NCBI GenBank assembly: GCA_943355005.1
Contig: CALRDV010000005.1
Location: forward strand, 4,999 to 68,998
Origin: Patescibacteria group bacterium
GTDB lineage: Bacteria > Patescibacteriota > Microgenomatia > UBA1400 > MFAQ01
Direction of reading: 5' to 3'
Length of the DNA: 64,000 nt
Shown here: piece after piece, positions 58 through 57,700 of the stretch
Position numbering within the stretch: the first letter of the stretch is position 1
Layout of the letters: every line of letters starts with the position of its first letter
Made by a program: the position numbers and the translations under genes
Notes under the pieces: generated by a model
What the model was told of the DNA's origin: nothing
Seen by the model: only the letters and a program-made list of their open reading frames with translations
Databases searched by the model: none

Positions 58-86
58 TGTCATTCCGGGCTTGACCCGGAATCCAG
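58..86 (+). repeat. Palindromic repeat, type 1 (GTCATTCCGGGCTTGACCCGGAATCCAG), intergenic, upstream of the S8 protease gene
   Basis: The sequence forms a perfect hairpin, ATTCCGGG-cttga-CCCGGAAT. The same 28-mer recurs at 14465, 41882 (one mismatch) and 56956. Confidence 0.8.
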
Positions 87-140
87 TCCCCCAATCTTGC
101 AATTTGACCATCCGTATTATTTCCTGTATTCTTTAATGTA

Positions 141-1552: not shown

Positions 1553-1591
1553 CGTCATTGCGAATCTCGTAATCGAGCTGTGGCAATCCAG
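1553..1591 (+). repeat. Palindromic repeat, type 2 (GTCATTGCGA-atctcgtaatcgag-cTGTGGCAATCCAGG), intergenic
   Basis: It shares the GTCATTGCGA 5' arm and the TGGCAATCCAG 3' arm with copies at 12138, 47052, 51984 and 56376. Its inner CTCGTAATCGAG hairpin resembles the copy at 52483. Confidence 0.8.
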
Positions 1592-2225: not shown

Positions 2226-3395
2226 ATGCTTAACCAAAAACTAAAACCAATCTTAAAATTTTTTGAATGGCTAATTTTCTCAGCCCTTATTTTTGTTGTT
2301 TTTATTATTCTCTCTCCACTTTTCCATCTAAGAGGACTACCTTCCACATTTATCGTAGCTACCGGCTCCATGGAGCCATTAATCAAAATAGGTTCGATTG
2401 CGCTTACACAAGAAATAGATCCTAAATCGGTTAAGGTTGGCGACATCATCGCTTTCACTTCGCCAAGCGATCCAAAACAAACCATTCTTCATCGGGTAAA
2501 CAGCATCTCATCTGTTGATCCATTAACGTTTAAAACCAAAGGTGACAATAATAAATCAATAGATAATTGGGATGTCCGAGATTCCGGTATCAAAGGCAAA
2601 TTTAGCTTCGCTATTCCATATCTTGGTCACGCCGGCGCCTTTATTCGCAAGCCTTTGGGATTTAGTATCGTCATTGGCATTCCGGCAGTACTCTTTATCC
2701 TTCTTCAGCTTTTAATCATCAAAAAAGCGATTGCTGAAGAGGTTGATCGTAAAGTTGCTAAGGCACTTGGCTCTCATACACTTCCTGTTATCATTGCCTT
2801 TTTTATATCACTCCTTGCTCTGTCTAGAGTGCCACTAGCATTGGCATATTTTTCTGACACAGCAACTATTTCGGGACTAAGTCTGTCGGTCGCAAATTTC
2901 TCCTCCGATGACGATGATGACGACGACAAACACTGCCCACCGGCCAACGACAAGGGAAACACGAATGACAAAGGGAATGGACATGATAATAACTGCGACG
3001 GCGAGAAAGATACCGGTAACAATAAGGATAAAGATAAAGAAAATGATAATGATGATGAAAAGGAAGATGAAGAGGTAAGCAATTCTCATCATCCAAAATT
3101 AGAAACTCATCTCGATTCAGAACGCCACTATTTCTCCTTCAGTCTTACTGATGTCGAAGATTTTTACGAGATTTCGTACCGAGTAAATTACGACACTGAA
3201 AATTCCTCGAGAGAGTTTGAAGGTCGGGAAGATATGGACAGAGAGCTGGAATATAGAAAACTTGATATCTTGCTTGGTTCCAAATCTGCCGGCGGAGGTG
3301 CTGTCTTTGACGAAGGCGTCAAAAATATCAAAATCTCCATTCGTCTCACCCGTCCAGACGGCACATTCTTCGACCTCGAAGATAATATGGAATAG
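2226..3395 (+). CDS. sipW: Signal peptidase I of the SipW/archaeal-ER (S26B) type, fused in frame to a C-terminal extension that carries a second SipW-cognate-like signal, an Asp-rich tract and a globular tail
   Basis: The N-terminal TM helix plus VATGSMEP (catalytic Ser box) and the HRV region are typical of SipW. After about 190 aa the sequence continues ...LPVIIAFFISLLALSRVPLALAYFSDTATISG...DDDDDDDK..., with no in-frame start codon separating the two parts. Confidence 0.65.
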   Translation: MLNQKLKPILKFFEWLIFSALIFVVFIILSPLFHLRGLPSTFIVATGSMEPLIKIGSIALTQEIDPKSVKVGDIIAFTSPSDPKQTILHRVNSISSVDPLTFKTKGDNNKSIDNWDVRDSGIKGKFSFAIPYLGHAGAFIRKPLGFSIVIGIPAVLFILLQLLIIKKAIAEEVDRKVAKALGSHTLPVIIAFFISLLALSRVPLALAYFSDTATISGLSLSVANFSSDDDDDDDKHCPPANDKGNTNDKGNGHDNNCDGEKDTGNNKDKDKENDNDDEKEDEEVSNSHHPKLETHLDSERHYFSFSLTDVEDFYEISYRVNYDTENSSREFEGREDMDRELEYRKLDILLGSKSAGGGAVFDEGVKNIKISIRLTRPDGTFFDLEDNME

Positions 3396-3412: not shown

Positions 3413-3560
3413 CGTCATTGCGGGGTTTGAGGTATTTTGGGTTTAACAATGAATCCCTTGTGGATTTATTGTTAAAAAAAATATAAAAATAACTCAAACA
3501 TGACGCAGCCTGTTTCGTAACGAACCAGGCTAGGCAGGGTTTACAACGCGTGGCAATCTC
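3413..3560 (+). repeat. Possible long composite member of the palindromic repeat family (5' GTCATTGCGGGG ... 3' CGTGGCAATCTCC with about 120 bp of interior)
   Basis: The two canonical element termini are present about 135 bp apart in the sipW to collagen-like intergenic space. The interior is AT-rich and non-coding. Confidence 0.4.
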
Positions 3561-3661: not shown

Positions 3662-4393
3662 ATGAAAAAGAAGTTCCTGCCACTTCTTCTCGTAGGGGTC
3701 TCCGTTATTATTTTCCCGTTTCTTTTCAGCCAGCCAGTCCACGCCGACGAAGACAGTCCAAGTACTGTAACCTTCTGTCTCAAGCACAATGGCTCAGTCT
3801 ACACCGCCGGTCGTGGACAGAAAAAGTCATTCTGCAGAGACGATGATAGATATATTAGTTTCAAACTGAGTATTTTAGACAATTTGGGCACCGTTGGCCC
3901 ACAAGGGCCCATTGGTCCCGCCGGCTCTCAGGGTGTTCAAGGAATTCAAGGTGAGCAAGGAATACAGGGAATCCCCGGCACAGGCAGTGGAGATTCCATT
4001 CCCGGCCCCAAAGGCGACCAGGGAATCCAAGGAATTCAAGGTGAAGTTGGACCCAAAGGTGACACCGGACTTCAAGGCATACAGGGACCTGTGGGTCCTG
4101 CCGGCCAAGACGGCACCTCAGGCTCAGGTTCCGGCATCTCCGGCTGGGAGAAAGTCATGGCAGCCACCACTTCCGCAGGCACGGACCAAACCTTCAGCGC
4201 CACCTGTACCTCAGGCAAGAAAGTCATTGGTGGAGGCTACGCAACTTCAAACGCCGTAACCTATTTAACCTATTACGCATTGGAAAATTACCCAAGCACC
4301 GACAATTCTTGGACCGCCACTGTACACAGAGCTAATTCTGGAGGTGCCACTTGGACTCTCAATGTCTACGCTCTCTGCGTCTCCGGACTATAA
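3662..4393 (+). CDS. Secreted collagen-like triple-helix repeat protein with a C-terminal globular domain
   Basis: A signal peptide (MKKKFLPLLLVGVSVIIFPFLFS) is followed by about 35 G-x-y triplets (GPQGPIGPAGSQGVQGIQGEQGIQGIPG...GPVGPAGQDG) and then a non-repetitive tail. Confidence 0.7.
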   Translation: MKKKFLPLLLVGVSVIIFPFLFSQPVHADEDSPSTVTFCLKHNGSVYTAGRGQKKSFCRDDDRYISFKLSILDNLGTVGPQGPIGPAGSQGVQGIQGEQGIQGIPGTGSGDSIPGPKGDQGIQGIQGEVGPKGDTGLQGIQGPVGPAGQDGTSGSGSGISGWEKVMAATTSAGTDQTFSATCTSGKKVIGGGYATSNAVTYLTYYALENYPSTDNSWTATVHRANSGGATWTLNVYALCVSGL

Positions 4394-4561: not shown

Positions 4562-6163
4562 ATGCTTAATTCAGACATAGATGTCAAAAAAAGGATACTC
4601 GAGAACGACGCGCTAGTCGAGAAGAAACTATCCGAAGACGAGCTTTTTGTGGAAATTGCCAAAGATTTTGGCTTGCCATTCACGAAAATTAACGCCTCAA
4701 ATATTGAGAAACAGGTCCTAAATCTATTGCCGGAAAAGATTGCCAGATCAAATAAAACAATAGCTTTCGGGAGAGACGAAAAAGTCGTCAAAATAGCCGT
4801 TGTTGATCAGCCAAATCAGGATTTACTTGATATGATTTCGAGGAAGACCAATCAGCCTATAAAGGTCTATTTCACTTCACCGGAATACCTAAAGAAAGCC
4901 TTACTTTTGTATCGTTTATCTCTTCAGGGGGCTTTCGATAAAATTCTTAGCGACATCTCGGATATTACCTTGGAAACAGCTCCTATTAGGAAGATAGTTG
5001 ATCTTTTGATTGACTATGCATATCAAGATGGAGCTTCGGATATCCATATCGAGCCGGAAGAAAAAAAGTTTAAGGTCCGTTTCAGAATTGATGGAATTCT
5101 GCACGACGTCCTGACACTACCAAGAGATCTACTGGATCGCGTGGTCACTCGCGTAAAAGTACTTTCACGTCTCAGGACGGATGAGCACCTTAGTCCTCAG
5201 GATGGTAAATTCCGTTTCTTTATCGAAGATGAGAATCTGGATATCCGCGTTTCTATTGTTCCCATTGCCGATGGTGAGAAAATCGTTCTCCGATTGCTTA
5301 CTTCTAAGTCTCGTGAGTACTCACTGGATAATCTGGGACTCAGCGAAACGGATTTGAAAACCATCCGCAAAGCTCTGGACAAGTCCTACGGCATGATTCT
5401 TTCCACTGGTCCCACCGGTTCAGGCAAAACCACTACTATCTACGCCTTGATAAAAATTCTCAATACGAGAGACAGAAATATCACTACTATCGAAGACCCT
5501 ATCGAATATCGTATTGAGGGTATAAACCAAATTCAGGTAAATACCAAAACCAATCTAACTTTCGCTAATGGTTTGGGCTCCATCCTTCGCCAAGATCCAA
5601 ACATTATTTTTGTCGGCGAGGTACGCGATAGCGAAACAGCTGCTATTGCGGTGAACGCTGCTCTTACAGGTCACTTAGTTTTCTCCACTTTACACACTTC
5701 GGACGCAGTCGGAGCGGTTCCCAGACTTTTGGATATGGGTATAGAACCATTTTTACTAACTTCTACGGTAAATGTCATCATTGCTCAGCGTCTTTTACGT
5801 CGAGTGTGTGTAGACTGCAAATATTCTTACACGGTCACCCGAAAAGAGTTGGCCAAAAATATTCCTTTGGATTCCATTAAACGGGACTTTGGCAGTTCCT
5901 CCGAAATTAAATTTTACAAAGGCAAGGGTTGTCCCACTTGTCACCATACCGGCTATCTCGGTCGAGCCGGCATTGTCGAAGTTCTCACCATTTCCAAGGC
6001 TATCAGAAAGTTAATTATCAGTGGAGGTGATTCGGATCAAATCTTGGAAGCTGCTCAGAAAGAGGGGATGATTACCATGTTTGATGATGGATTGCGCAAA
6101 GCTCACCAAGGCGTCACCACTATCGATGAAGTTCTCCGGGTTACCAAAGTTGAAATATTATGA
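4562..6163 (+). CDS. pilB: Type IV pilus assembly ATPase (PilB/GspE family)
   Basis: Walker A GPTGSGKTTT, the GspE signature region, the C-terminal tetracysteine CxxC...CPTCHH, and an N-terminal GSPII-like domain are all present. Confidence 0.9.
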   Translation: MLNSDIDVKKRILENDALVEKKLSEDELFVEIAKDFGLPFTKINASNIEKQVLNLLPEKIARSNKTIAFGRDEKVVKIAVVDQPNQDLLDMISRKTNQPIKVYFTSPEYLKKALLLYRLSLQGAFDKILSDISDITLETAPIRKIVDLLIDYAYQDGASDIHIEPEEKKFKVRFRIDGILHDVLTLPRDLLDRVVTRVKVLSRLRTDEHLSPQDGKFRFFIEDENLDIRVSIVPIADGEKIVLRLLTSKSREYSLDNLGLSETDLKTIRKALDKSYGMILSTGPTGSGKTTTIYALIKILNTRDRNITTIEDPIEYRIEGINQIQVNTKTNLTFANGLGSILRQDPNIIFVGEVRDSETAAIAVNAALTGHLVFSTLHTSDAVGAVPRLLDMGIEPFLLTSTVNVIIAQRLLRRVCVDCKYSYTVTRKELAKNIPLDSIKRDFGSSSEIKFYKGKGCPTCHHTGYLGRAGIVEVLTISKAIRKLIISGGDSDQILEAAQKEGMITMFDDGLRKAHQGVTTIDEVLRVTKVEIL

Positions 6164-7224
6164 AAAAAACCAAAGATCTAAGCAAGATCAGAATCAGTAA
6201 TAACGACAAACTAAATTTTTTGTCCGGGTTGGGCACCATGTTAAGAGCCGGCTTATCCGTCCTGGAAGTTGTCAGTTCACTCGCTGAGGACTCACGTGGA
6301 GATCTAAAAATCTTTTTCGAAGTTCTGTATGAAGATTTAACCCAAGGTAAAACCATCTCTTCATCATTAGCCAAATTTCCAAGGTCCTTTGACAAAGTCA
6401 CCATCAATGTCCTAAAGTCAGCTGAAGAAAGTGGTACTTTGGAGTCGACTCTCAAGGACGTCGAAACCACCATTCAGAAAACAATTAAATTCAATGACAA
6501 GATTCGTTCCGCCCTTCTTTACCCACTAGTCGTTTCTGTTGTGTTTATTTTCATCATTGTCGGTATCTTAATTTTCGTCATTCCCCGCGTGTCTACAGTC
6601 TTTACTTCCTTAAATATCGACCTCCCTTTACCCACCAAAATTCTTTTGTATATTTCGAATATCCTGACACAGCAAACCATTTGGGTAGTCGGTTTCTTCA
6701 GTGCTCTTATCCTAGGAATTATTATTTTGTATATCAAGAAAAGAGATTGGCTAATAAACCGCTTCTTGTCTCTACCTTTTATTTCTACTATAGCGGCGGA
6801 GATAGATTTGACCCGCTTTTCTCATAGCCTCTCATTACTTCTGGATGCCGGAATTCCAATTACTTCGGCTCTCGCCCTTACTCAAGAAGTCATCGTGAAA
6901 GAGGAAATTAGAAATGTCATTGCTGAAACCAGAGATATGGTTGGCTCCGGCAAAAAGATTTCTGAAAGTTTTAAGAAATACAAAAAAATCATTCCTAAAT
7001 TGGTTATCAAAATCATAGAAGCGGGTGAACATTCAGGTTCGCTTAGCGCTTCCATGCAATACATTTCAGATTATTTGGAATACCAGGTAGAGAAGAAACT
7101 CTTCTCCGCTACGACGCTTCTTGAGCCCTTTATGCTCGTGACTATTGGCTTTGTCGTGGGTGGCATGATGCTATCTATCATCAGCCCGATTTATTCTTTA
7201 ATTGGCCAAATTGGACCTCGATAA
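6160..7224 (+). CDS. pilC: Type IV pilus inner-membrane platform protein (PilC/GspF family)
   Basis: It has a GspF-like domain architecture with three or more TM helices and overlaps the pilB stop codon, indicating translational coupling. Confidence 0.75.
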   Translation: MKKTKDLSKIRISNNDKLNFLSGLGTMLRAGLSVLEVVSSLAEDSRGDLKIFFEVLYEDLTQGKTISSSLAKFPRSFDKVTINVLKSAEESGTLESTLKDVETTIQKTIKFNDKIRSALLYPLVVSVVFIFIIVGILIFVIPRVSTVFTSLNIDLPLPTKILLYISNILTQQTIWVVGFFSALILGIIILYIKKRDWLINRFLSLPFISTIAAEIDLTRFSHSLSLLLDAGIPITSALALTQEVIVKEEIRNVIAETRDMVGSGKKISESFKKYKKIIPKLVIKIIEAGEHSGSLSASMQYISDYLEYQVEKKLFSATTLLEPFMLVTIGFVVGGMMLSIISPIYSLIGQIGPR

Positions 7225-7691: not shown

Positions 7692-7692
7692 C

Positions 7693-10031: not shown

Positions 10032-10032
10032 T

Positions 10033-10419: not shown

Positions 10420-10432
10420 TTACAAAAAAACC

Positions 10433-11443
10433 ATGCCCAAAAAAAGAAACTCCATCATTAAAATAGAAGGTGATAGATTAATCTTCGAAAATTCGGATTT
10501 ATCCAAGTCTCTCAAATTTAATTATCCTGCGGATACAGTTAGAGATTTAGAAATACTTGATGCCGAGAAGTTGGAAGAGGGGATTCAAACTTTCATCACC
10601 AAGAATGAAATTTCTGCCGGTTCTCTGCTCTTGGTACTTTCCAAAAATATTACCTTCCAAAAATCAATTTCTTCTTCAAACATAGAACAAGAAAGAACAG
10701 CTTTCTTGGACAGTATACCTTTCGAAACCATCTCTTCCAAAATTTACGGGAAGAAGGATAGTCAGGTAATTGTCGCTACCAATCGAGATCTTGTTCAGAA
10801 ATTCCAATCAATATTTGTTCACCTAGGTTTTCAGGTTGAGGGTGTCGTTCCTGAAGAATTATTACCGGAAAATTACTCGGATCTGTACCTAAAAAAATCT
10901 ACATCCTATTCTCATCTCAGTATGGCAGGTAACTCCGGCTACAAAGAAACCAAAATCAATAAAATCGCCAAGAAAGAGATAGAAGCCAGCAAAAATCTGC
11001 GCTTACTCCTTACCCTCTTTGGATTTTCTTTCCTCGTCCTAGGTGGCGCCTACTACTACTCCCACCGAGAGTACGATTCGGCAAAAGTCTCAGAGGTTGT
11101 CATTCCCGACCTGATCGGGAATCCATCCGGAATACCTACAAACACATTATCCGACCCTTCCACCTTATCGGTCAAGATTTTATATCGTCCACAAGAGGAA
11201 TTATCAGCCAAGGAGTTGCAAAGTATTTTATGGTCAAGTGGTTTCAAGAATACCGATTTAGTTGCCACCACTTCCGCTGGCCTGAGCACAAATCTCTCTT
11301 TGTCGCCGAACCTTCCTCCAGACCTAATTCAAAAGATTCAAGGAGAACTCTCCAAAATCGACAAAAACTACACTGTTGACTCACTAGTTTCGGAAAATTC
11401 GGAAGTAACGATTTTACTTGCTAAATCAAGCAAAAAGCGATAA
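10433..11443 (+). CDS. Hypothetical pilus-assembly membrane protein (PilM/PilN-like by position)
   Basis: It has a single central TM helix (LRLLLTLFGFSFLVLGGAYYY) and sits between pseudopilin genes and the major pilin gene. I recognised no diagnostic motifs. Confidence 0.35.
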   Translation: MPKKRNSIIKIEGDRLIFENSDLSKSLKFNYPADTVRDLEILDAEKLEEGIQTFITKNEISAGSLLLVLSKNITFQKSISSSNIEQERTAFLDSIPFETISSKIYGKKDSQVIVATNRDLVQKFQSIFVHLGFQVEGVVPEELLPENYSDLYLKKSTSYSHLSMAGNSGYKETKINKIAKKEIEASKNLRLLLTLFGFSFLVLGGAYYYSHREYDSAKVSEVVIPDLIGNPSGIPTNTLSDPSTLSVKILYRPQEELSAKELQSILWSSGFKNTDLVATTSAGLSTNLSLSPNLPPDLIQKIQGELSKIDKNYTVDSLVSENSEVTILLAKSSKKR

Positions 11444-11519: not shown

Positions 11520-11549
11520 CAGGGCATTAATAATAATTAATGCAAAGTT

Positions 11550-12137: not shown

Positions 12138-12169
12138 CGTCATTGCGAGGTACTCCGTGGCAATCCAGG
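12138..12169 (+). repeat. Palindromic repeat, type 2 (CGTCATTGCGAGGTACTCCGTGGCAATCCAGG), intergenic
   Basis: The 30-mer is identical to the copy inside the CDS at 51984-52014. Confidence 0.85.
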
Positions 12170-12257: not shown

Positions 12258-15200
12258 ATGACATCGAAATTTACGGGCGCCATCATCGTCGATTCCTCTT
12301 TTTGGGCAAAGCCCGGTGTCCAAAACAAATGGAAAAAAGCCCTAGATAAAATAGATACGGGATACCGCATTTTTGATAAGACAAAAAATAGGTTTGAAAT
12401 CAAGAAATCTCTCGCCAAATTCCTCAATGAAACTACAGCTCAAGAAGTTTTTCTAATAGACACCACACATACATCACCCTCCGACCTTGCCACCTTCTTC
12501 AAGTCAGCTCGTCACTCAGACAACCAGCTCTTCCTCCAATCCAATCCGTCCATCACTCCATTCCACAAAATCCTCTCCAAAAACCTGCACCACGGCCATG
12601 AAGTTTTAGCCTATTCACCTCTCAAACTTCTTCCCCAATCACTTTGCTACAATCTCAAACCCTCCGACCTCTCTTTTGGCACCGATCACGCCATCATCCA
12701 TCTCGCCACTCTGATGTCTCTCTCGATACAAAAAGTCGAGACCAAAATAATATCCAAGAAACGTCACCTACTTCAATCAAGTATTTCCCATCTATCCACC
12801 CGCCTTTCACCACCACGCCCGTATCACCTTCTGGGAGATAACTCGGACAATATGCTCGGCGCCGGCATGGTCCACAGAGGAAAAACTTTCATCACTCACA
12901 CCACTTTGAAAGAGCATCACAGCGCCACAAATACTTTTACTGTTCCTCAAGCTCTCACCGGACTATTTATCTTGCTCGTCCTCATCGCTGGTGTCCTCAC
13001 TTATCCCAGGAACACCATGATTGCTTTCACAGCCGTTCTCTCCACCATATATTTTATCGATGTTCTCTTTAATCTTTTCCTGGTGGGCAAAAGTCTTCAG
13101 ACACCTCCCGAATTGAAGTTCACCCCGGAAGAAGTGGCTAGTCTGAAAGACGAAGAATTACCGATTTATACCATCCTTGTTCCTTTATTCAGAGAAGCCC
13201 TCGTCCTCCCTGGTTTTGTCGAATCAATTTCCAAGATGAACTATCCTCAATCAAAATTGGATGTGCTTCTTCTCATGGAGGAGGATGATAAAGAAACTAT
13301 AGACGTCGCCAATTCTTTAAATCTTCCCGCCTTTATCCGCCAAATCATCGTGCCTCACTCCATGCCGAAGTCCAAGCCCAAGGCCTGTAACTACGGTTTA
13401 GCTTTTGCGAAAGGGGAGTACCTCGTAATTTACGACGCCGAAGATCATCCGGATGCAGATCAGCTGAAGAAAGCCATTTTAGGATTCCGTTCTTCACCTC
13501 CGGAAGTTGCCTGTCTCCAAGCCAAGCTAAATTATCACAACGCCAATCAGAATTTACTTACCCGTTTCTTTACCGCCGAGTATTCTTTGTGGTTCGATGT
13601 TGTCCTCCCCGGCATGCAGTCCATCAATACTTCCATTCCCTTAGGTGGCACTTCCAATCATTTCCGAGTCAAAGATATTATTAAGTTCCGAGGTTGGGAC
13701 GCTTTCAATGTTACCGAAGATGCTGACTTGGGTTCTCGCCTTTTCCGCGCCGGCTACCGCACTGCCATTGTTGATTCTGTCACTTTAGAAGAAGCCAATA
13801 GTAAAGTAGGAAACTGGATTCGTCAGCGTTCTCGCTGGATCAAGGGCTACATGCAGACCTATTTAGTTCACACTCGCGATTGGCGAACTTTTTACAAAGA
13901 ACAAGGCTTGCATGCTGTTATCTTTCAGCTCTCCGTCGGCGGCAAGATTGCCTTCATGCTCATCAATCCACTTTTGTGGGTTATGACCATTTCCTACTTT
14001 GCTCTATATAAATATGTTGGACCAACCATCGAGAGTTTTTACCCAACTCCCGTTTTCTACATGGCTGCGTTTTCTCTAGTCTTTGGAAACTTCCTTTTCC
14101 TCTACTACTACATGATTGGTGTCGCCAAGCACGGACACTGGACCCTGGTCAAATGGGTTTTCCTCGTTCCTCTTTACTGGTTACTTCTTAGTCGAGCTGC
14201 CCTCAAGGCACTTTATCAATTAGTCGTAAATCCACACTATTGGGAGAAGACTGATCACGGTTTACATTTTAGTTTCTTAGCCAAGAAACAAGCCAAAGCA
14301 GAACAGAAAGCCGCCCGCAAAAATAATCACAAAGTCTCTCTCTTCTTCCTCACCGCAATTCTTAATGTTTTAAACCTCCTCCAAAAACTCACTACTCCGA
14401 AACCATCCGTCATTGCGAGTTTCGGTAAACCGAACCGAAGCAATCTCACTCCATCAAACGACAATGTCATTCCGGGCTCGACCCGGAATCCAGAATCTGT
14501 CATTGCGAGCAAAGCGAAGCAATCTAGCTCAATAGCTTCGTCATTGCGAGATTCGTACTCGAACCGAAGCAATCTCATACCATCCAGACTCACATCATCA
14601 TTCAAAAAAGCCTACTACCACCCCCAAGCCGGTAGCATCATGCTCATCATCGCTTCCGTTCTCGGCAACTTCCTAAACTTCGTCTACAGCGCCTACCTCG
14701 GCAACACCATTAGTCTCGAGCAGTTCGGTCTCATCAGTCTTTTTGGCAGCTTTCTATATCTCACTCAAATTCCAACCAGTATTTTTGGAAGTTCCGTCAC
14801 CCGCGAAAGCGCTTTCTATTTTGGTAAGGAGAAAACTCAGCCCAAACATATTTGGAAACAATTTCGTCGCTGGGGAATCTACTTCTCTCTAATTCTTACA
14901 GTTATTTGGCTTCTTTCCATTCCATTTCTCCGGTCTATCTTCAAAGGCGATTCCTTTATTCCTTTTTACATATTCTCCCCGGTCATAATTCTCGGCTTAC
15001 TTTCTTCCGTTGATAGGGGGTTCTTGAATGGCACTCTTCGTTTCAAAATCCTCGCCACCGTCGGTATCACTGAGGCCGTCATTAAACTTCTGTTTACTAT
15101 CCTTTTGGTATCCATCAATCAGAAGCAGAATGTCTATCTCGCTCTACCTCTCTCCATGGCTTTCTCTTTCTTGCTTAGTTGGTTCTTCGCCAGCAGAGTT

Positions 15201-27428: not shown

Positions 27429-27461
27429 TGTCATTGCGAGTGTACTCACGTGGCAATCTAG
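27429..27461 (+). repeat. Palindromic repeat, type 2 (TGTCATTGCGAGTGTACTCACGTGGCAATCTAG), intergenic
   Basis: It has the same termini as the other type 2 copies. Confidence 0.8.
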
Positions 27462-38904: not shown

Positions 38905-39717
38905 ATGTCTGTTCGTTCTGTCATTCCCGACCTGATCGGGAATCTATTTAAATTCACTCCGATTATAATTGTCGCTTTTTTGGCTTTCATCTTCTCCCCA
39001 CTCGTCATGGCCAGCGCCAAATCAGACTACGATTATCAGTACGGTAAATATAGAACCAATTTTGCCGAGTTCGCTATTCTTAAGCAAGACTACTTAACAA
39101 CTCCAAGTCTGGACAATCAGCAAAAGGTTATGATCTCGGCCAAGCAGACTATCCTTAGTCGTGATCTAGCCAAAGCATCTCTAGATTGGTATCTTCTGGA
39201 TCTTATTGGCAGTTATCGCGTCGATTACGACCCCATTAAGCCCGTAATCACTGCTTTAAACAGCTCACGCCAATATTTCCTGGATCAATCATTTAAAGCC
39301 CAAAGTATAGTCACTGAAGCCGATTTAAAGAAATTTACCAACAATTATCTCGAGACTGTTCCTGTAAACGACGCCATGATTAAGTTCGGCATCTTAGCTC
39401 ACAAAATCGCTGAGTTGGTCAGAATCCAAATCGATTCCAAGACGGCATTGGAAACCATCATTCCCAAACTACCTTCACCTATGCCACAGAATCTTACCGA
39501 TCGTATCCAAGAGCTCAGAGATAAAGCCAAATTTATAGATGCGAAGATTGATACATTTGCCAATAATCTTCCCATGGCCGAGGCCGTGTCTGAGTCAGCT
39601 AATGATATTTTCTTCTCCTCCCGCGTAGAGATTTTGACTGAGATTCGTCTACTTCAATTAGATTGGATTAATCGTCTTATTGATATCGATATAAACTATG
39701 TCCAACCCCAAATTTGA
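38905..39717 (+). CDS. Hypothetical secreted/membrane-anchored protein
   Basis: An N-terminal hydrophobic segment is followed by an alpha-helical-looking domain. I recognised no motifs. Confidence 0.35.
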   Translation: MSVRSVIPDLIGNLFKFTPIIIVAFLAFIFSPLVMASAKSDYDYQYGKYRTNFAEFAILKQDYLTTPSLDNQQKVMISAKQTILSRDLAKASLDWYLLDLIGSYRVDYDPIKPVITALNSSRQYFLDQSFKAQSIVTEADLKKFTNNYLETVPVNDAMIKFGILAHKIAELVRIQIDSKTALETIIPKLPSPMPQNLTDRIQELRDKAKFIDAKIDTFANNLPMAEAVSESANDIFFSSRVEILTEIRLLQLDWINRLIDIDINYVQPQI

Positions 39718-47041: not shown

Positions 47042-47051
47042 TACTACCCCT

Positions 47052-47088
47052 CGTCATTGCGAGGAGCAAAGCGAAGTGGCAATCCAGG
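47052..47088 (+). repeat. Palindromic repeat, type 2 (CGTCATTGCGAGGAGCAAAGCGAAGTGGCAATCCAGG), intergenic
   Basis: It has the same termini as the other type 2 copies. Its interior is similar to the copy at 56376. Confidence 0.8.
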
Positions 47089-47097
47089 AAAACAAAC

Positions 47098-49906: not shown

Positions 49907-51395
49907 ACTTGTTTGGCTTATTGTTCTGGCCTTCACCACTCTTGTATTATTTTTATTTTTTCGTCTTTACTCCTTAAACAAAATCCCTGTTTTTGTAGAT
50001 GAAGCCATATATGTCCGTTGGTCTCAAGTTATGAGGACGGAGCCAACACTCAGGTTTTTGCCTTTATCGGATGGTAAGCAGCCACTATTTATGTGGTTGA
50101 CCATGCCCGCCCTCAAATTTATTTCAGATCCTCTTGTCGCTGGCCGGACGATTTCAGTACTGGCGGGATTTGGATCTCTGATTGGTGTTGGGATTCTTGC
50201 CTTCGTCATCTTTGCCAATCCATTTATTGCCTTATTCTCGTCGCTTATTTATGCCATCGTCCCTTTCACTATGTTCTTCGACCGTATGGCTTTGGCGGAC
50301 AGCCTTCTGGCGATGTTTGGTGTCTGGTCTTTGATTTTTGCGGTAAAGTTTGCCAAAACTCTCAGTACCGAATACGCCATTTATCTTGGTTTTGCCATCG
50401 GAGGAGGACTGCTTACAAAGTCTCCGGCTATGATTTTTTATATCTGGTCACTTCTCACAGTCATTTTTTTCTTGGATCGGTCAAAAATAGATTTTAATAG
50501 CATCGGTAAATTTATTTGGGGAGTTTTCTTAGTCGTAGTAATATCTCAAGTGATGTATGGCGTTCTCAGATTGGGTGTCGGCTTCCAGATGATAGGCTCC
50601 AGAAATCAGGATTATGTTTATTCCATCAAGGAAGTGTTGAGTCACCCATTTTTGCCATTTATCGCAAACATAGAAACCACTGCGAACTGGCTTTTCTTGT
50701 TACTTACTCCCACTGTTCTGATTTTGGGAGTCCTCGGCTATTTAAATTCCCAAACCAGACGATCTTTTATTTTTCTTCTCTTGGTGTCTCTCTTACCACT
50801 TTTGTTCCAAGCGTCTATCGCCAAAGTCTATACCACTCGTTATATTCTTTTTGCCGTATTACCGCTTTTGCCTTTGGCCGGACTTGGTCTTCATTGGTTG
50901 TTTAGTCGCAAAGGGTTACTTATTAAGTCATCGATAATATTATTTTTATCCGTACCGATTATCATTACTTTTGTCTATCTGTTTAATCCTTCTGCTGCAC
51001 CCATGACTAGAGATATGAGTACCGGATATTTGGGTGAATGGACAGCGGGCACGGGTCAGAGAGAGGTTGCAGAGTATTTACTAAACGAAGAGGCCAAAGG
51101 AAACAAAATCGTGGTCTTTACCGAGGGAACCTTTGGGACTCTTCCGGATGGTTTACAAATCTATACCGAGGGTCACAAAAACATCACCATTGTGGGATCC
51201 ACTCCCAATATTTTTGAAATTCCTGAGGGTTTATTAAATACCAGCAAAGACAATCAAAGATATTATGTTTTAAATGCCTCAAGGAATCATCTGCCTGCCT
51301 CGGAAATGGCAAAACTCGAGCTAATCAAAGAATACCCCAAATTACCAAGACCGGACGGATCGCGCGAGGCTCTTCTCTTCTTCCGCCTGAAATAA
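49893..51395 (+). CDS. GT-C family membrane glycosyltransferase (ArnT-like)
   Basis: It has 12 or more TM helices, an FVDEAIY-like first loop, and a C-terminal soluble domain. Confidence 0.5.
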   Translation: MTKNRLVWLIVLAFTTLVLFLFFRLYSLNKIPVFVDEAIYVRWSQVMRTEPTLRFLPLSDGKQPLFMWLTMPALKFISDPLVAGRTISVLAGFGSLIGVGILAFVIFANPFIALFSSLIYAIVPFTMFFDRMALADSLLAMFGVWSLIFAVKFAKTLSTEYAIYLGFAIGGGLLTKSPAMIFYIWSLLTVIFFLDRSKIDFNSIGKFIWGVFLVVVISQVMYGVLRLGVGFQMIGSRNQDYVYSIKEVLSHPFLPFIANIETTANWLFLLLTPTVLILGVLGYLNSQTRRSFIFLLLVSLLPLLFQASIAKVYTTRYILFAVLPLLPLAGLGLHWLFSRKGLLIKSSIILFLSVPIIITFVYLFNPSAAPMTRDMSTGYLGEWTAGTGQREVAEYLLNEEAKGNKIVVFTEGTFGTLPDGLQIYTEGHKNITIVGSTPNIFEIPEGLLNTSKDNQRYYVLNASRNHLPASEMAKLELIKEYPKLPRPDGSREALLFFRLK

Positions 51396-51424
51396 GGTCG
51401 TTCTTCCATATATAATTACATCAC

Positions 51425-53269
51425 ATGCGTTACTTTTTTCAGATCATTTCAACTATCGCCAAATTCGTTTCTCGCTACCGCATAGAATTTTTACTCTTAC
51501 TTCTTGTCATTCCCGCAATTAGCGATGTTTTTAAAGAAGGTTTTATGCCTATGCATGATGATCTTCAAGTTCTCAGGTTAGTTGAGGTCCACAAGTGTAT
51601 TTTGGATGGTCAGATACCTTGCCGATGGGTTCCGGATGCCGGTTTTGGCTACGGATACCCTCTAATGCAATTTTACCCTCCCATGCCTTATTACCCCATG
51701 GAGCTCATGGTTTTACTGGGGTTTGGATTTTTCTTCCCGGTTAAAGTCATGTTTGCTTTAGCTTTTGTTCTCAGTGCCCTCGGTATGTATTTGCTGGGGA
51801 AGGAGTTTTTTGGAAAATGGGGTGGCATCCTAGCCTCGGTGTTATACGTCTATTCTCCTTATCATTCTGTCGACGTCTATGTCCGTGGTGCTATGAACGA
51901 AGCTTGGGGGATGGTCTGGTTCCCGTTCGTCCTCCTCTACATCTACAGACTTGTCTCCCGCCAAGGCGGGACTCACACCGCCCCGTCATTGCGAGGTACT
52001 CCGTGGCAATCCAGTTTAGCAAAAATTAAATTTCAAGTTAGTTCGGATTTTATTTACCTCAGTATCGCCATAGCTCTTCAGCTTACTTCCCACAATGTTA
52101 TGACTCTCGTATTTGCCCCTACGGCCATTATTTGGGCATTATTCTGGATGTGGAAGCTAAAATCATTTGACAAGATAAAAGACCTCTTCTTCTCTGGCTT
52201 ATTCGCTTTAGGTCTTTCTGCTTTTTTCTTTATTCCTGTCGTGTTGGAGCAGAAATTTGTGCACGTAGACTCTATGACAAGTGGCTATTTTAATTATTTA
52301 GCCCATTTTGCCGACATAAAACAACTTTTTTGGACTAGATTCTGGGGCTATGGTGGTTCTACTTGGGGGCCGGAAGATGGCATGTCTTTCTCTGTCGGTC
52401 ATTTTCAGTGGATCGGCGTTATCCTCGCCGGCACCGTTGCCTCATTAAGACTCTACCGCCTCAAATTTTACAAAAAAAGCTCCGTCATTGCGAGTCTCGT
52501 AGTCGAGCCGAAGCAATCTCAATCCACCAAATCATCCTCATTAAACCTCATGATCCTTTTGACCATCGCTTTTGGTTTTGGTTATGCCTTCCTCACCCAC
52601 AGCCGATCCAGTTTTATATGGGAGAGACTTCCTGTCTTGCAATACGCTCAATTCCCATGGCGCTTGGTCGCTCTAATCGTTTTTTACTTTTCTTTTGCTA
52701 CCGGTTATTTAGCTACCGTCACTCTGCCAAAAATTTTCAAAACGGTTGCCCTTACTACACTTATTGTTAGTATCATTTTATTCAATCTTCCCTTTTTCAA
52801 ATTCGAACGCCATGTCAGAGTGACATTTCAAGAAAAATTGTCCGGACTTTCTTGGGAAAATCAGGTCACTGGAGGTATCTTTGATTATCTCCCGAGGACA
52901 GCTTCCAGACCTCCAGGAGATCCGGCTTTCACTATTCCCATATACATCGAAGGTCAGGGTGGCATTCTCAACTACCGTTCCGGGTCAAATTGGATTACTT
53001 TCGATGCTTATGTTTCTACAGACACTTCCAAAGTTATGATACCTATGTTTACTTTCCAAGGAATAAAAACCAAGGTGGATTCCAAAAAAGTGATTACCGA
53101 AATGGATCCTGACTTAGGCAGAGTTATTTTTAGTCTTGATAAGGGACTTCATCACGTCGAAGCCAAGATTGGCTATACCAAAGTCAGACTTATTTCCGAT
53201 CTATTAACTCTCTTTTCATTCATTCTTTTAATAAAACTACTTCGCGATGATCGAAAACACACCTCCTGA
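51425..53269 (+). CDS. Large polytopic membrane protein (GT-C/YfhO-like) containing two in-frame palindromic-repeat insertions
   Basis: It has about 13 TM helices and a C-terminal beta-rich soluble domain. The repeats at 51984-52014 and 52483-52520 translate to SLRGTPWQSS and SVIASLVVEPKQSQS. Confidence 0.5.
   Translation: MRYFFQIISTIAKFVSRYRIEFLLLLLVIPAISDVFKEGFMPMHDDLQVLRLVEVHKCILDGQIPCRWVPDAGFGYGYPLMQFYPPMPYYPMELMVLLGFGFFFPVKVMFALAFVLSALGMYLLGKEFFGKWGGILASVLYVYSPYHSVDVYVRGAMNEAWGMVWFPFVLLYIYRLVSRQGGTHTAPSLRGTPWQSSLAKIKFQVSSDFIYLSIAIALQLTSHNVMTLVFAPTAIIWALFWMWKLKSFDKIKDLFFSGLFALGLSAFFFIPVVLEQKFVHVDSMTSGYFNYLAHFADIKQLFWTRFWGYGGSTWGPEDGMSFSVGHFQWIGVILAGTVASLRLYRLKFYKKSSVIASLVVEPKQSQSTKSSSLNLMILLTIAFGFGYAFLTHSRSSFIWERLPVLQYAQFPWRLVALIVFYFSFATGYLATVTLPKIFKTVALTTLIVSIILFNLPFFKFERHVRVTFQEKLSGLSWENQVTGGIFDYLPRTASRPPGDPAFTIPIYIEGQGGILNYRSGSNWITFDAYVSTDTSKVMIPMFTFQGIKTKVDSKKVITEMDPDLGRVIFSLDKGLHHVEAKIGYTKVRLISDLLTLFSFILLIKLLRDDRKHTS
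51984..52014 (+). repeat. Palindromic repeat, type 2, inserted in frame in a CDS (a 30-mer identical to the intergenic copy at 12138)
   Basis: The sequence is CGTCATTGCGAGGTACTCCGTGGCAATCCAG. Confidence 0.85.
52483..52520 (+). repeat. Palindromic repeat, type 2, inserted in frame in a CDS
   Basis: The sequence is CGTCATTGCGAGTCTCGTAGTCGAGCCGAAGCAATCTC, and its inner hairpin resembles the copy at 1553. Confidence 0.85.
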
Positions 53270-54725
53270 CGCCCCATCGGTACTTGAAGTCCAAGAAGTA
53301 AAAAGACGGAGTATTTCCGGTGTCCTAGCTCTCATATCTCGTACTTTCATCATTCAAATTATCTCCTTTGTTGCCACCCTTGCTCTTACCATTTTTCTGG
53401 ACCCAAACACTTACGGAATCTTTTATCTTGTTTCTTCGGTCGTCAACTTTATGGCATATTTTTCCGACGTCGGTTTGGCCGCAGCACTAATTCAAAAAAA
53501 GGAAGCTATTACCAAGGAGGATCTCTCCACTACTTTTACTATTCAACAAATATTGGTTCTATCTCTGCTTACCATCTTGTTTGTCTTGTCTCCGATAATT
53601 CAAACTCAGTATCAAATTGATCAGTCAGGGATGTATCTACTTTATGCCATGGGTGTTTCTCTTTTCTTGAGTTCGCTAAAGACAATACCTTCCATCATGT
53701 TGGAACGGGAAATCAAATTCAATAAACTAATTCTTCCCCAAGTTCTGGAAACTCTTGCTTTCAATTTTGTCGCCGTCTTCTTTGCGTGGAAGGGTTTTGG
53801 AGTCACTGCTTTTACTTTTGCTGTTCTCGCAAGGGGAGTTGTCGGTCTGATTGCTTTATATATTGTCTACCCATGGAAGCCAATTTTCGGCATCAATCGC
53901 TCCTCGCTTTCTCATTTACTAAAGTTTGGTTTACCATACCAAGTAAATACATTTTTAGCTGTATTGAAAGATGATGGTATGACGATTATTCTGACCAGAA
54001 TAATTGGAACACAGGGACTGGGCTATATTGGTTGGGCCTCCCGGTGGGCCGGTTTACCTCTAAGAATTGTGATGGATAACTTGACTAGAGTTTCCTTCCC
54101 AACTTTTGCGAGACTCCAGCACGACAAAGAGAGATTGGCTAAAGCCGTCGAGATTAGTCTTAAATATATGTGTCTTTTAACTTTTCCGATTCTTGCCGGG
54201 ATGGGTTTCCTGGCTTTGCCCATGACCCACTTGATTCCACGGTACGCCAAATGGCTTCCGGCCATTATTCCTCTTTACCTATATCTGTACAATTCTGCTT
54301 GGGCCAGCATTAGCACCAGTCTGACAAATCTACTAAATGCTACCGGTCATATAAAATCTACTTTCAAACTCATGCTTATGTGGACAGGTCTCACTTGGGC
54401 CATTATGCCAATATTGTCGATTAAATTTGGGTATATGGGAGTTGCTTTTGCTACCGGAATTATTGCCACTTCTTCCATAGTCACCATTATTATGGCCAAA
54501 CAACATGTCAACTTTAGTATGATAAATATAGTTAGAACTCCTCTTCTCGGATTACTTCCCATGATCTTCTGGCTCTACTTGTCAGTCGGCTCTATCGGTT
54601 CATACACTACCTTGGTCGGCATCATCATTACTTCTGCTATCATTTATTTTGGTTCAATATATATTTTGGAAGGCAAATTATTTTTTACGGATACGCTTAG
54701 TTACTTCAAGATCAAACATGTTTAG
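53247..54725 (+). CDS. Polysaccharide biosynthesis flippase (MOP superfamily, Wzx-like)
   Basis: It has 12-14 TM helices. The N-terminal MOP-type helices carry Arg/Lys (ISRTFIIQIISFVATLALT), and the size of 492 aa fits. Confidence 0.65.
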   Translation: MIENTPPDAPSVLEVQEVKRRSISGVLALISRTFIIQIISFVATLALTIFLDPNTYGIFYLVSSVVNFMAYFSDVGLAAALIQKKEAITKEDLSTTFTIQQILVLSLLTILFVLSPIIQTQYQIDQSGMYLLYAMGVSLFLSSLKTIPSIMLEREIKFNKLILPQVLETLAFNFVAVFFAWKGFGVTAFTFAVLARGVVGLIALYIVYPWKPIFGINRSSLSHLLKFGLPYQVNTFLAVLKDDGMTIILTRIIGTQGLGYIGWASRWAGLPLRIVMDNLTRVSFPTFARLQHDKERLAKAVEISLKYMCLLTFPILAGMGFLALPMTHLIPRYAKWLPAIIPLYLYLYNSAWASISTSLTNLLNATGHIKSTFKLMLMWTGLTWAIMPILSIKFGYMGVAFATGIIATSSIVTIIMAKQHVNFSMINIVRTPLLGLLPMIFWLYLSVGSIGSYTTLVGIIITSAIIYFGSIYILEGKLFFTDTLSYFKIKHV

Positions 54726-57700
54726 AAAACTATTAGTCATAGTCGCCATTATTTTCTTCAGTCTGCCCGGAAAAGCTTCAGCATTCAAGGCAGATACTTT
54801 TGTGACTTTTGCGAATCCTGTCCGCGGTCCGGAAAATTGGCAAGCGGGAAAGCAAGATCCCCTGGCTCTTCCGAAGTTTCAGTATGCCGAGTCTACTCCC
54901 TCCGCTTACCCCATCACCTGGCTACTTCGCTACGATGCAGTCCGAGATTCAACGATGTCCGCTTTTTTCAAGACTCTTTCGGAATCCGACAAGACTCAAA
55001 CCTTAGGTGCCTTTTTGGAGATTACTCCAAAGCTAGCGAGTGATTCGGATGTTTCATACCCTGCCGGCACTACTCCATTCAATGCCAATCGAATTTTCCT
55101 TTCCGGCTACACGACAGACCAAAGGACCAATCTGATCGACACCTTCATGGCAGCTTTCTTTGTGGAGTTCGGTTACTACCCTAAGTCGGTAGGGGCTTGG
55201 CACCTGGATAGTTATAGTCTGCAGTATCTTCAATCAAGATATTCCGTCCTTACTGCCATGAACTGCGACGACCAATACTCTACGGATAATTACCGGATTT
55301 GGGGAGGGTACTTGGGTAGTCCTTATTTCCCTGACAAAAACAATTCCTTAATTCCTGCGAACTCCTCTTCCAATCGAATCAATCTAGCTATGGTTCGCTG
55401 GGCTCAGCGTGATCTCTTTAACTTTTATGGATACCGATCCGAATCTTCTTACTCCGTACAGGTAAACGATTATCTGGCTCAAGGTCAAAACACCAAGTAT
55501 TTCGAAAAACTTTTAGGTCAATATTCTCAGAAGAAAATGAACGAGTTTACCTATATCAATATTGGTCTGGAAAACGACCACAGTCTACTTGAATACAAGT
55601 CCGAAATAAAAAATGTCTACAAACTACTCATTGCCAATCAGGGGACGTACAATCTCCGATTTACCTCTCTTTCTGATTTCGGTGATTGGTTCAAAGCTCG
55701 TTATCCGGAGAGCTCTCCGGCTTATTACTACGAGTCTACGGACCCACTCAGTGCCAGGTCGGGTAAGGTCTACTGGTACCAAAGTCCTTGGTATCGCATT
55801 GGCTTCAAATCCGAAAACGGTAGTACTAAAATCGTTGATTTCCGAGTCTACAATCGCAATGTTTTTGAGGATTATCTCCATACCCCAAATCAAGGTTTAA
55901 ATCTCTATCAGGAGATTCCGGCAGTCATCGATTCCGTCAAATGGCCAGGTACCGAAGCAGTATTGAGCTTTGATATGGAAAAAGCGACCTTTGTTTACTC
56001 GAAGCAGTGGGATTATTGGCAAGTTGCCTTTAAGTCCGGAAATCAAACTCTCACATTGTATCCAGACAAAATTTCCTTCACCGGTTTTTCGGCACCGTCA
56101 ATTTCATCCAAAGACGTAAAGTCTGTTTCCAAGAAAGACACTACCACCTGGGAACTAACTCCTTTCACGCCATTCCAAAAAACTTCCAAATTCACCTGGC
56201 TCTTCTGGCTAGTGGTTATCATTGCCGTGATCAAAATCATCAAAAGATTTAAAAATCCTCCTACTTCGTCATTGCGAGATTCGGTACACCGAACCGAAGC
56301 AATCTCGTCCACAAAAACATCCGTCATTGCGAGGATATTCCCGAAGCAATCTAGCTCATCAACCACTCCAGTATCCGTCATTGCGAGGAGCGAAGTGACG
56401 TGGCAATCCAGGAATTTACTTTTCGGCATTATCATCGCCCTCCTCGCCACCCTTACCGTCCTCCGAAACGGACTCCTTTATCCTTTTGGTATGGGTTTCT
56501 GGGGACCAAATGGACACGACGCCATTTTTCATCTTTCTCTAATCGAAAAATTCGCCACCAACCCCTTTAGTTTTGTTCACCCGCAAATTGCAGGGGAGAA
56601 GATAGCCAATTATCACTTTATTTTTGATTTTATTTCCGGACTTATTGTTAAACTCTTTGGAATATCATCTATTGATCTCTATTTTCGGATTTTCCCTGTC
56701 ATTGCCGGTATCGCTATCGTGTTTCTTCTTGATAAGCTTTTAAAACTCTGGAACTACAACGCTCAAGAAAGATTGCTAGCGATTTTTCTAGCCTTTTTAG
56801 CCGGTTCATTTGGCTTTATCTCCAAGCTCTTTGTGGGGCAGAGTATTTTTGCCGGGGAATCATCTTTCTGGTCCAATCAGTCTGTTTCCATATTTCTAAA
56901 CCCTCCCTACGCCCTCTCACTAATTGTGCTGTTAATTTTTTTACTTCAACTTTCTCGTCATTCCGGGCTTGACCCGGAATCCAGAAATTTGTCATTGCGA
57001 GGAGGTAATCCGACGTGGCAATCTACATCCATCAACCGCCATGATTATTTTCCCCTCATCCTCCTTGGCGCCCTCCTAGCCCAAACAAAAATTTACGCCT
57101 TTATCCTGCTTCTCGGCGCTCTACTATTTTCTAAGAGATACAAGCTCTTTATCGGAGTATTGGTATTAGGTGTTCTTATTTCTTTGCCCTTCACGACTCT
57201 TGGTGGACCGTCTCCGTTTCTTTTCTCACCTCTTTGGTTCCCCAGAAGTCTTTTTGCTTCTTTTGATCGCATGTATTGGCCACAGTTGGTTCAAGCTTGG
57301 CAAGCATACGAGGCTTCAGCGAATTTTGTAAAGTTGGCCTTAGTAAATCTTTTTGCTCTCGTAATTTTTCTTGTAGGCAATCTAGGAATGAGATGTTTTG
57401 GCTTATTGGAAGTAATTAAGACTAAGTCACAATCTGTCTCAGAATCTCTTGTCCGATGGATAATTCTTTTCGGCCTTATCACCCCCATACTTTTTGTCCA
57501 GAATATCAATCCCTGGAACACTATCCAGTTTATGTATTATTCTCTCTTTTTCTTAGCCCTCTTCACTGCCAAGTGGCTTTCAAAACAAAATATATTACTT
57601 TTTCTACCATTGGTATTTCTTGCCACTCTCACCTCCATTGGCACTCTCCAAGACTACATCGGTTTTTTCTCTGCTTCCAGAATTAGTTATTCCGAGCTCT

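Follow-up and report, generated by a model that had tools for sequence, protein, structure and literature searches.

Co-oriented hairpin repeats of the CGTC-tagged REP kind between and in frame within genes of a Candidatus Collierbacteria genome

Results and discussion

Hairpin repeats at the locus

The 64,000-nt stretch analyzed here (the window; contig CALRDV010000005.1, positions 4,999 to 68,998, also part of the 202-kb contig ena:ERZ27280309:k141_2119755) comes from a genome that its top protein hits place in Candidatus Collierbacteria, a Microgenomates lineage of the Candidate Phyla Radiation (CPR), with a very compact genome; the window is 95.4% coding and 4.6% non-coding. Between its genes, and in frame within several of them, lie 19 firm copies of short hairpin-forming repeats that fall into two classes, class A (type 1) and class B (type 2). 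The repeats are members of an already described pan-bacterial hairpin family, with some variant features, and in our view they are probably single-strand hairpin repeats, non-autonomous and of the CGTC-tagged REP / Ssn-related motif (SRM) superfamily, that were spread in this Collierbacteria genome by Ssn-type enzymes, Ssn being a small GIY-YIG nuclease.

All coordinates are positions in the window (Table 1); the upstream 10 kb of the same contig were also scanned, giving 74 kb in total. When up to three mismatches were allowed, the type-1 28-mer was matched four times (59, 14466, 41883, and 56957), always on the plus strand, with 0 matches expected from 100 shuffles. The type-2 head GTCATTGCGAG, with at most one mismatch, was matched 14 times, again only on the plus strand, against an expectation of 0.67 and a largest shuffle count of 3, and the hexamer GTCATT occurs 62 times on the plus and 9 times on the minus strand of the window. 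A structural regular expression run over the window returned 19 full copies on the plus strand and one weak minus-strand candidate (24185), whose 5-bp stem is probably a chance occurrence. The hairpin families were also the top-ranked repeats of the window in an independent repeat finder, which gave near-identical pairs or triplets at 100% over 30 nt, 95% over 40 nt, and 92% over 39 nt; such near-identical copies within the window point to recent copying. Six further plus-strand copies were found in the upstream 10 kb, including a third class-A stem variant (L244:4271).

A sequence-only reading made earlier on the same DNA had listed 18 copies. The repeats that it claimed are there, but the total now stands at 19 firm copies, two of which (11099 and 38920, with a variant of the type-1 stem, GTCATTCCCGACCTGATCGGGAATC) it did not list; of its positions 14499 is exact, the one given as 14538 is 2 nt low and the others are 1 nt low. 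That all copies share one orientation, that 11 of them sit inside three large open reading frames (ORFs) with the frame kept, that in-frame type-2 copies are limited to two readings (VIA. or SLR. only), and that the copies 12139 and 51985 (given as 12138 and 51984) are identical across 30 nt was all confirmed, and so was the broader description of two related forms occurring between genes and in frame within genes. The in-frame readings of type 1 are VIP. or HS. Out of seven intergenic copies previously counted six are firm, the seventh having been a long composite at 3413-3560, in which type-2 5′ and 3′ ends are indeed present but are not predicted to pair.

Table 1 Hairpin copies and related features in the window
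Positions	Strand	Element	Location
59..86	+	class A; TGTC tag, stem ATTCCGGG/CCCGGAAT, loop CTTGA, tail CCAG	intergenic, 57 nt upstream of S8 peptidase gene
1554..1591	+	class B (2b); two-tier hairpin GTCATTGCGAA..GTGGCAATCCAG	intergenic
3414..3559	+	possible split or nested type-2 copy; 5′ end GTCATTGCGGGG (3414), 3′ end GTGGCAATCT (3550), ~125-nt structured insert; uncertain member	
11099..11126	+	class A; stem variant ATTCCCGA/TCGGGAAT	in frame (VIPDLIGN) in 336-aa ORF 10433-11443
12139..12168	+	class B (2b); identical to copy 51985	intergenic, after terminator-like hairpin, 92 nt upstream of 1593-aa ORF
14409..14577	+	head-to-tail array: 14409 B, 14466 A, 14499 B, 14540 B	in frame, interdomain linker of 1593-aa GT2-membrane-GT1 protein (12258-17039)
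27430..27461	+	class B	fills 45-nt spacer between two co-directional genes (stop ends 27419, next start 27465)
38920..38947	+	class A; stem variant	codons 6-13 of ORF 38905-39717, N-terminal tail before membrane/signal segment
41883..41910	+	class A; one G·T pair	convergent spacer, 13 nt past 3′ end of minus-strand ORF 41924-42610
47053..47087	+	class B (2b)	56-nt spacer between GT2 and PMT_2 genes
51953..51974	+	degenerate hairpin GTCTCCCGCCAAGGCGGGACTC	directly upstream of copy 51985, same inserted loop
51985..52014	+	class B (2b)	in frame (SLRGTPWQS) in 614-aa PMT_2-like membrane protein
52484..52521	+	class B (2a)	in frame (VIASLVVEPKQS) in 614-aa PMT_2-like protein
56268..56411	+	head-to-tail array of three class B copies (56268, 56323, 56377)	in frame after membrane segment of 1145-aa ORF (54649-58086)
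56957..57026	+	class A 56957, then class B 56991	in frame (HSGLDPES..SLRGGNPTWQS), loop of 1145-aa protein

Two hairpin classes

Class A copies consist of a Y-GTC tag, a perfect 8-bp stem (ATTCCGGG/CCCGGAAT) opening with ATT, a 5-nt loop, and a CCA(G) tail. Three stems were found, each with a loop of 5 nt: besides the principal one, these are ATTCCCGA/TCGGGAAT and ATTCTGAA/TTCAGAAT, and the variants are related by compensatory changes (CGGG/CCCG, CCGA/TCGG, TGAA/TTCA). Class B copies have the Y-GTC tag, a 5-bp basal stem (ATTGC/GCAAT), an internal loop with GAG on one side and CGAAG or GTG on the other (also rendered as GAG / CG(A/T)(A/G)G), and a self-complementary upper hairpin that varies freely in length and sequence; they were divided into the sub-types 2a (..CGAAGCAATCTC) and 2b (..GTGGCAATCCAGG). 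The base preceding GTC is C in 11 and T in 8 of the 19 copies, and a purine in none. A CCA tail is carried by five of six class-A and five of seven type-2b copies, the tail of type 2a and of copy 38920 being CTC or CTA.

Type-1 copies were predicted to fold with free energies (dG) of -5.1 to -8.5 (z -2.6 to -4.3), and type-2 copies more weakly (dG -2.6 to -8.2, z near 0 in some copies). Over all loci, the interiors of type 2 are nonetheless more self-complementary than shuffled sequences (mean z -1.47; 36% at p ≤ 0.05 among 162 unique copies), and in 256 out of 323 unique copies the top, tagged strand is the better-folding of the two. We take the conserved feature to be the DNA hairpin and not the peptide. 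No match was obtained in Rfam and tRNA scans.

Insertions relative to orthologues and occurrence in other genomes

Judged by alignment with orthologous proteins, all 11 copies within the three large ORFs are lineage-specific insertions in loops or linkers, each in-frame element adding 9-13 residues. In the 614-aa protein both repeat segments are gaps in most of the 26 orthologues (~565 aa), and a few close relatives carry other combinations of elements in these loops. At the codon level, the first site has no element in locus L001, only a type-1 variant in L003, the variant followed by a type-2 copy with a different interior in L002, and a degenerate hairpin followed by type 2 in the window; this degenerate hairpin (51953..51974) is possibly a decayed class-A copy. 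At the second site, copy 52484 is shared with L003, decayed in L002, and absent from L001 and most orthologues. The structure model of the protein places both sites in low-confidence regions between helices (predicted local distance difference test scores <50 at residues 181-203 and 360-365), with the loop of copy 51985 as a low-confidence coil.

Similar differences were seen for the other two proteins. None of the five copies in the 1145-aa ORF is matched in the orthologue from L001 (1070 aa), from which the stretch 56268..56411 is nearly all absent, a short unrelated segment standing there instead, and in which the loop matching 56957..57026 is ~21 aa shorter. The 1593-aa protein has a three-domain GT2-membrane-GT1 fusion that is conserved across Microgenomates, and its ~95-aa linker with four copies is absent from all 12 aligned relatives. 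Outside of coding sequences, the spacer between the GT2 and PMT_2 genes (window 47042-47097) contains a type-2b copy in the window, an ATCC-type class-A copy in L001 (1066-1098), and none in L002 (~460), a pattern that would point to repeated independent hits or to replacement at one site.

The elements are likewise spread far beyond this locus. A scan of a genome collection with the type-1 pattern gave at least 120 loci in more than 20 phyla, including 11 loci from other CPR lineages, and motif-bearing viral contigs numbered at least 120. The earlier suggestion of a dispersed, probably mobile family therefore held on both counts, i.e., orthologues without the inserts and the same sequences in more than 20 phyla.

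These data also bear on an explanation that involves no mobility, in which the shared segments are peptide or linker motifs, conserved or convergent, or arose as paralogous envelope genes underwent local gene conversion. The copies do cluster in functionally related envelope genes, gene conversion could yield identical pairs, and different relatives show repeated hits on one and the same loop. However, identical DNA is found both in non-coding spacers and, within genes, in three reading frames, the segments are missing from most orthologues, the same 25-mers recur in Flavobacteriales, Dehalococcoidia, and many other phyla, and it is the hairpin that is conserved and not the peptide. The orthologue alignments and the cross-phylum occurrence largely refute this explanation, and we regard it as extremely improbable.

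Relationship to known repeat families

CGTC-tagged REPs were described by Di Nocera, De Gregorio & Rocco (2013; PMC3733652) as elements in which a CGTC or TGTC tag precedes a stem of 8-9 bp that opens with two A-T pairs and encloses a loop of 4-5 nt, with CCA as the tail; they occurred in five phyla, and no tyrosine transposase was found in association. Their CGTC-1 family equals the Neisseria dRS3 element and RPE-6 of R. conorii, CGTC-4 equals RPE-4, and intragenic copies were recorded. Type 1 and its variants agree with this description in tag, 8-bp A-T-opening stem, 5-nt loop, and CCA tail, as well as in their distribution over many phyla, the lack of a tyrosine transposase, and in-frame peptides of the VIPxxxGI / SFPRKRES / HSRxxxES kind. 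For instance, the window peptides VIPGSTRNP, VIPDLIGN, and HSGLDPES are counterparts of VIPAKAGI, SFPRKRES, and CHSRRSGNP in the tables of that study, where CGTC-1 of R. conorii gives VIPAKAGI / SFPRKRES. The sequence-only reading had likened the repeats to Rickettsia palindromic elements (RPEs); type 1 shows every feature of the CGTC-tagged REPs, the superfamily of RPE-4, RPE-6, and dRS3, and the likeness is more than an analogy. The novelty that it had implied did not survive, as the family and its in-frame copies were already in the literature.

Several features set the window copies apart from this description. Type 2 has no 8-9 bp stem but the 5-bp basal stem, internal loop, and variable upper hairpin described above, it belongs to none of the four families described, and the supplementary tables of PMC3733652 do not list its peptides. 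Moreover, the host belongs to the CPR, which the 2013 study did not sample, 68% of the copies are intragenic, and the predominance of head-to-head dimers, reported there as a descriptive feature along with a negligible number of head-to-tail pairs, is replaced in the window by head-to-tail neighbors in a single orientation. Literature searches with the literal repeat sequences returned unrelated primer matches only, and a keyword search for palindromic repeats in Patescibacteria returned only papers on TIGR-Tas.

Like RPEs in general, the copies in the window are inserted in frame into conserved genes and are absent from the orthologues. RPE-1, the element that Ogata et al. reportedly presented in 2000, is said to be a selfish palindromic element found in frame in many unrelated genes. 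The copies described here share with it the structurally tolerant, surface-exposed positions and host proteins that stay intact, but they are 28-40 bp long and of the RPE-4/-6 (CGTC) lineage, whereas RPE-1 measures ~100-150 bp and adds 30-50 residues.

The closest functional information comes from the Neisseria Transformation Sequence (NTS, CGTCATTCCCGCGMAVGCGGGAATCYRG), an oriented form of dRS3 (PMC11893778; Chenal 2025, Nat Commun). SsnA, a 94-aa single-domain GIY-YIG nuclease, binds the NTS as single-stranded DNA and cuts a few nucleotides upstream, while the complementary strand, double-stranded DNA, and RNA are no substrates, and ssn genes across phyla are flanked by inverted Ssn-related motifs in a layout resembling that of an insertion sequence (IS). 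Binding and cutting of the single-stranded top strand and IS-like inverted flanks are thus established in the literature for Neisseria and Wolbachia; a role in the restriction of transformation has been proposed for the NTS in Neisseria. Type 1 shares CGTCATTCC...GGAATCCAG with the NTS and differs from it by compensatory changes in the inner stem and one extra loop base; compared by hand, it departs at more than one position from the NTS search string, in which one mismatch is allowed. Both are directional elements clustered in and around membrane-protein genes, although only 2% of NTS copies in N. meningitidis are intragenic (PMC11893778), against 68% of the copies in the window.

Association with the GIY-YIG nuclease Ssn

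Ssn-like genes were located by phmmer and hidden Markov model (HMM) searches seeded with YhbQ/YazA sequences, motif regular expressions having been unproductive. Three of the matches listed (~240 loci) have an Ssn-like gene enclosed by inverted hairpins. Both flanks of the single-domain (cd10448-type) GIY-YIG gene are identical to type 1 of the window in a Flavobacteriales locus (L163), and one flank is identical to the type-1 variant in a Dehalococcoidaceae locus (L230). Among the metagenomic ssn loci described below, one flank is again identical to this variant in L293, and in L314 type-2 elements with the ATTGC stem stand on both flanks of the ssn gene. A search with the L163 Ssn protein gave 34 matches, of which the few named ones are Flavobacteriales/Bacteroidota and none is named as CPR.

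When metagenomes were scanned with an Ssn alignment, 80 ssn loci were obtained (L245-L324), 67 of which have a hairpin with a YGTCAT tag within 250 nt; inverted hairpins stand on both sides of the gene at 43 of the 70 evaluable loci. These flanking hairpins match the two classes of the window in architecture: in some the stem of 8-9 bp is perfect, and in the others a basal stem of 5 bp is followed by a GAG/CGAAG internal loop and an upper hairpin that varies. The class is the same across the gene in nearly every case (A/A 21, B/B 22, A/B 2). The Ssn proteins cluster accordingly: the nearest neighbor has the same hairpin class in 62 of 65 cases, and the clusters differ by an RxWK vs. RxKK signature, which suggests co-evolved nuclease-hairpin pairs. 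In view of the class-B flanks at ssn loci, including L314, type 2 is also an Ssn-associated hairpin, though it lies outside the four CGTC families and the SRM string.

Across ~320 loci, among the matches listed, GIY-YIG is the only recurrent gene between these hairpins. A second cargo family was not seen: other inverted pairs spaced 200-1200 nt apart enclose unrelated genes. This bears on another candidate mechanism, that of classical REP/REPIN elements mobilized by RAYT, an IS200/IS605-like Y1 enzyme; a test for a partner of this kind had been suggested for the repeats, and the gene found in association is ssn instead. GTAG-tagged REP/REPIN elements and the "peel and paste" elements of the IS200/IS605 group do resemble the copies described here, being short tagged hairpins that are recognized as single-stranded DNA and show no evident target duplication, and a strand asymmetry is expected from such a single-strand mechanism. 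IS608 and ISDra2, both of the IS200/IS605 group, insert into the lagging-strand template. The small hairpins with an unpaired 5′ tag, the lack of an evident target duplication, and the uniform strand, which recalls such insertion, would fit a RAYT mechanism. The tag, though, is Y-GTC and not GTAG, the associated enzyme is a GIY-YIG nuclease and not an HUH/Y1 transposase, the literature reports no tyrosine transposase for CGTC-REPs (PMC3733652), and no transposase-like ORF was noticed in the translations of the window, with Pfam run on eight ORFs only. We consider mobilization by RAYT very unlikely.

Placement and orientation of the copies

In the window, 13 of the 19 copies (68%) are in frame inside ORFs, namely the 11 in the three large ORFs and those at 11099 and 38920, and 6 are intergenic, on average about one copy per 3 kb. 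Relative to the space available, intergenic copies are ~seven-fold enriched (p 1e-4). All copies point the same way (19:0 in the window, p 4e-6; 25 of 25 over 74 kb), and neighboring copies are arranged head-to-tail only. The high intragenic share has an ordinary explanation in the coding density of 95%, which leaves scarcely any other room for copies to survive, and this matches the use of stop-free frames only. The strand uniformity is not explained by coding density; it fits a single-strand mechanism acting on the lagging-strand template or on the non-template strand, or selection on transcripts, causes that the window cannot separate because nearly all its genes lie on one strand.

A different picture emerges from other genomes, again among the matches listed. 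There, 98 of 125 type-1 copies are outside ORFs and the rest include 12 in sense and 11 in antisense orientation, none of the 11 copies in other CPR lineages is intragenic, and head-to-head pairs (75) outnumber head-to-tail (46) and tail-to-tail (10) ones. Head-to-tail arrays of type 2 were met in two IMG/VR contigs (L076 2670-2856 and L121 8305-8491), each with five intergenic copies spaced by 37-42 nt. The label "sense-ORF" that these arrays received is an artefact: the arrays alone create ORFs of ~190 aa, and the real genes are on the other strand.

The orientation data are also where a function as RNA has to be weighed. The hairpins could act mainly as transcript stabilizers, processing sites, or modulators of translation, in which case selection on transcripts would set their orientation. 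All 19 copies are in sense orientation, either within co-directional genes or in the tight spacers of operons, folding is better for the top than for the bottom strand, and the tails (CCAGGA) of some 2b copies lie 9-13 nt ahead of start codons; in addition, Di Nocera et al. (PMC3733652) argued from location and G·T pairs that many REPs act as RNA. Against this, SsnA acts on single-stranded DNA and neither binds nor cuts RNA or double-stranded DNA (PMC11893778), some type-2 hairpins are weak (dG as low as -2.6, z near 0), the intragenic type-1 copies of other genomes show no sense bias, the L076 and L121 arrays run opposite to their genes, no Rfam family was matched, and the lineage-specific gain in protein loops is left unexplained. 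We find a predominant role as RNA doubtful; it would concern function only and is compatible with the family assignment.

The spread by Ssn-type enzymes that we favor would have been driven in this genome by one or two such enzymes. Their substrate would be DNA that is transiently single-stranded, namely the lagging-strand template or, in genes under transcription, the non-template strand, which would explain why 25 copies in 74 kb share the direction of the genes. The in-frame copies would be tolerated passengers and not functional domains, with survivors found mostly in stop-free frames and in disordered loops and linkers of membrane and envelope proteins. A stronger version, in which an actively transposing, strictly strand-specific single-stranded DNA element is at work in this lineage, its hits on loops generate surface diversity, and two Ssn clades (RxWK and RxKK) serve the two hairpin classes, is in our view possible, with the balance of likelihood lying well on the other side.

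A number of observations weigh against spread by Ssn-type enzymes. No match to the Ssn HMM was found in six-frame ORFs of the window and the 10 kb upstream. The published work (PMC11893778) demonstrates binding and cleavage by Ssn and the IS-like gene layout, with mobilization put forward as a hypothesis. It also reports that ~19% of SRM-rich genomes carry orphan copies, with no ssn gene. The published SRM string HGTCWYN(0-2)YYVSBRHN(0-5)WNVSBRGN(0-2)RNCYNB has 0 matches in the window; a check by hand traced the mismatch to a single position in the loop for type 1 and to the YY positions of the stem for type 2. The arrangement in the window, head-to-tail and in one orientation, is atypical for a family in which head-to-head dominates elsewhere, and the L076 and L121 arrays, opposite in strand to their genes, show that co-orientation with genes is no general rule. 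Furthermore, the inserts exceed the elements, as the 1593-aa protein has ~95 extra aa and its four elements encode ~45 aa, and insertion boundaries or target duplications are not resolvable at a protein identity of 64-80%. On this last point, which also bears on a MITE-like nature (terminal inverted repeats from an IS and a target-site duplication), the sequence common to identical copies is limited to Y-GTCATT..AATCCAG and no flank is visibly duplicated, and the empty and filled sites of relatives are too diverged for boundaries to be drawn.

Genomic surroundings and side observations

On the coding strand, the GC skew is markedly negative (-0.13 to -0.24) at 10000-16000 and 50000-58000, two regions rich in membrane-protein genes; this is the reverse of the usual leading-strand sign and makes the replication direction of the contig ambiguous. 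No hairpin copies occur between 14577 and 27430, a range that includes a low-GC block (16000-24000; 34-36% vs. ~42% elsewhere) with glycosyltransferase, deacetylase, and SDR genes, which may be a recently acquired glycosylation island.

Around the uncertain copy at 3414..3559, the 5′ part at 3414 by itself is not a folded copy. The segment 3425-3535, bracketed by the type-2 ends, is non-coding and strongly structured (z -5.6), holding a long imperfect palindrome (~3425-3500) and a hairpin (AGCCTGTTTCGTAACGAACCAGGCT) that resembles type-2 interiors. A candidate at 12015 was rejected as a non-member, given that only its first 8 nt match and its hairpin is terminator-like. The minus-strand ORF next to copy 41883 is a putative trmD, judging from its translation.

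Copy 11099 is in frame in a membrane-anchored ORF of a cluster resembling type IV pilus or type II secretion systems (4562-12005), which encodes a T2SSE ATPase, a T2SSF platform protein, and several prepilin-like ORFs with N-terminal motifs of the FTLIELL type. Nearby, a collagen-like protein with G-x-y repeats adjoins a signal-peptidase-like protein with a long low-complexity tail rich in D/E/K/N (3662-4393 and 2226-3395). Two adjacent paralogous ORFs at 32186-34428, which share a 73-nt stretch at 79% identity and seem glycoside-hydrolase-like by their translations, look like a local tandem duplication. The listed start of the 1145-aa ORF is a TTG that overlaps the upstream flippase gene (54649-54717); the ATG at 54718 (MFRKLL...), from which the L001 orthologue aligns, is the likelier start. 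In a second sample, a 2-kb contig (L325; ena:ERZ27280286:k141_1621354) encodes a protein identical to that of window 59635-60564, so the same population is present in at least two samples.

Conclusions

Peptides such as VIAS..KQS, SLRG..WQS, VIPxxxxNP, and HSxxDxES in proteins of CPR and other bacteria are read-through of hairpins and not novel domains, and annotators and builders of protein families can mask them. What is unusual in this genome is the CPR host, the intragenic majority of the copies, a uniform orientation not seen in the other hosts of the family, and arrays that are head-to-tail only. The ssn genes with flanking hairpins in two concordant classes add to the picture of the family, and the mobilization of the repeats by Ssn, as well as the single-stranded intermediate used, can now be tested. 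Should the elements be actively transposing in this lineage, they would provide the first genomic evidence of Ssn/SRM as a mobile system of the "peel-and-paste" type and not only as a restriction target, and in-frame hits on the loops of envelope glycosyltransferases would diversify the surface proteins of a CPR episymbiont.

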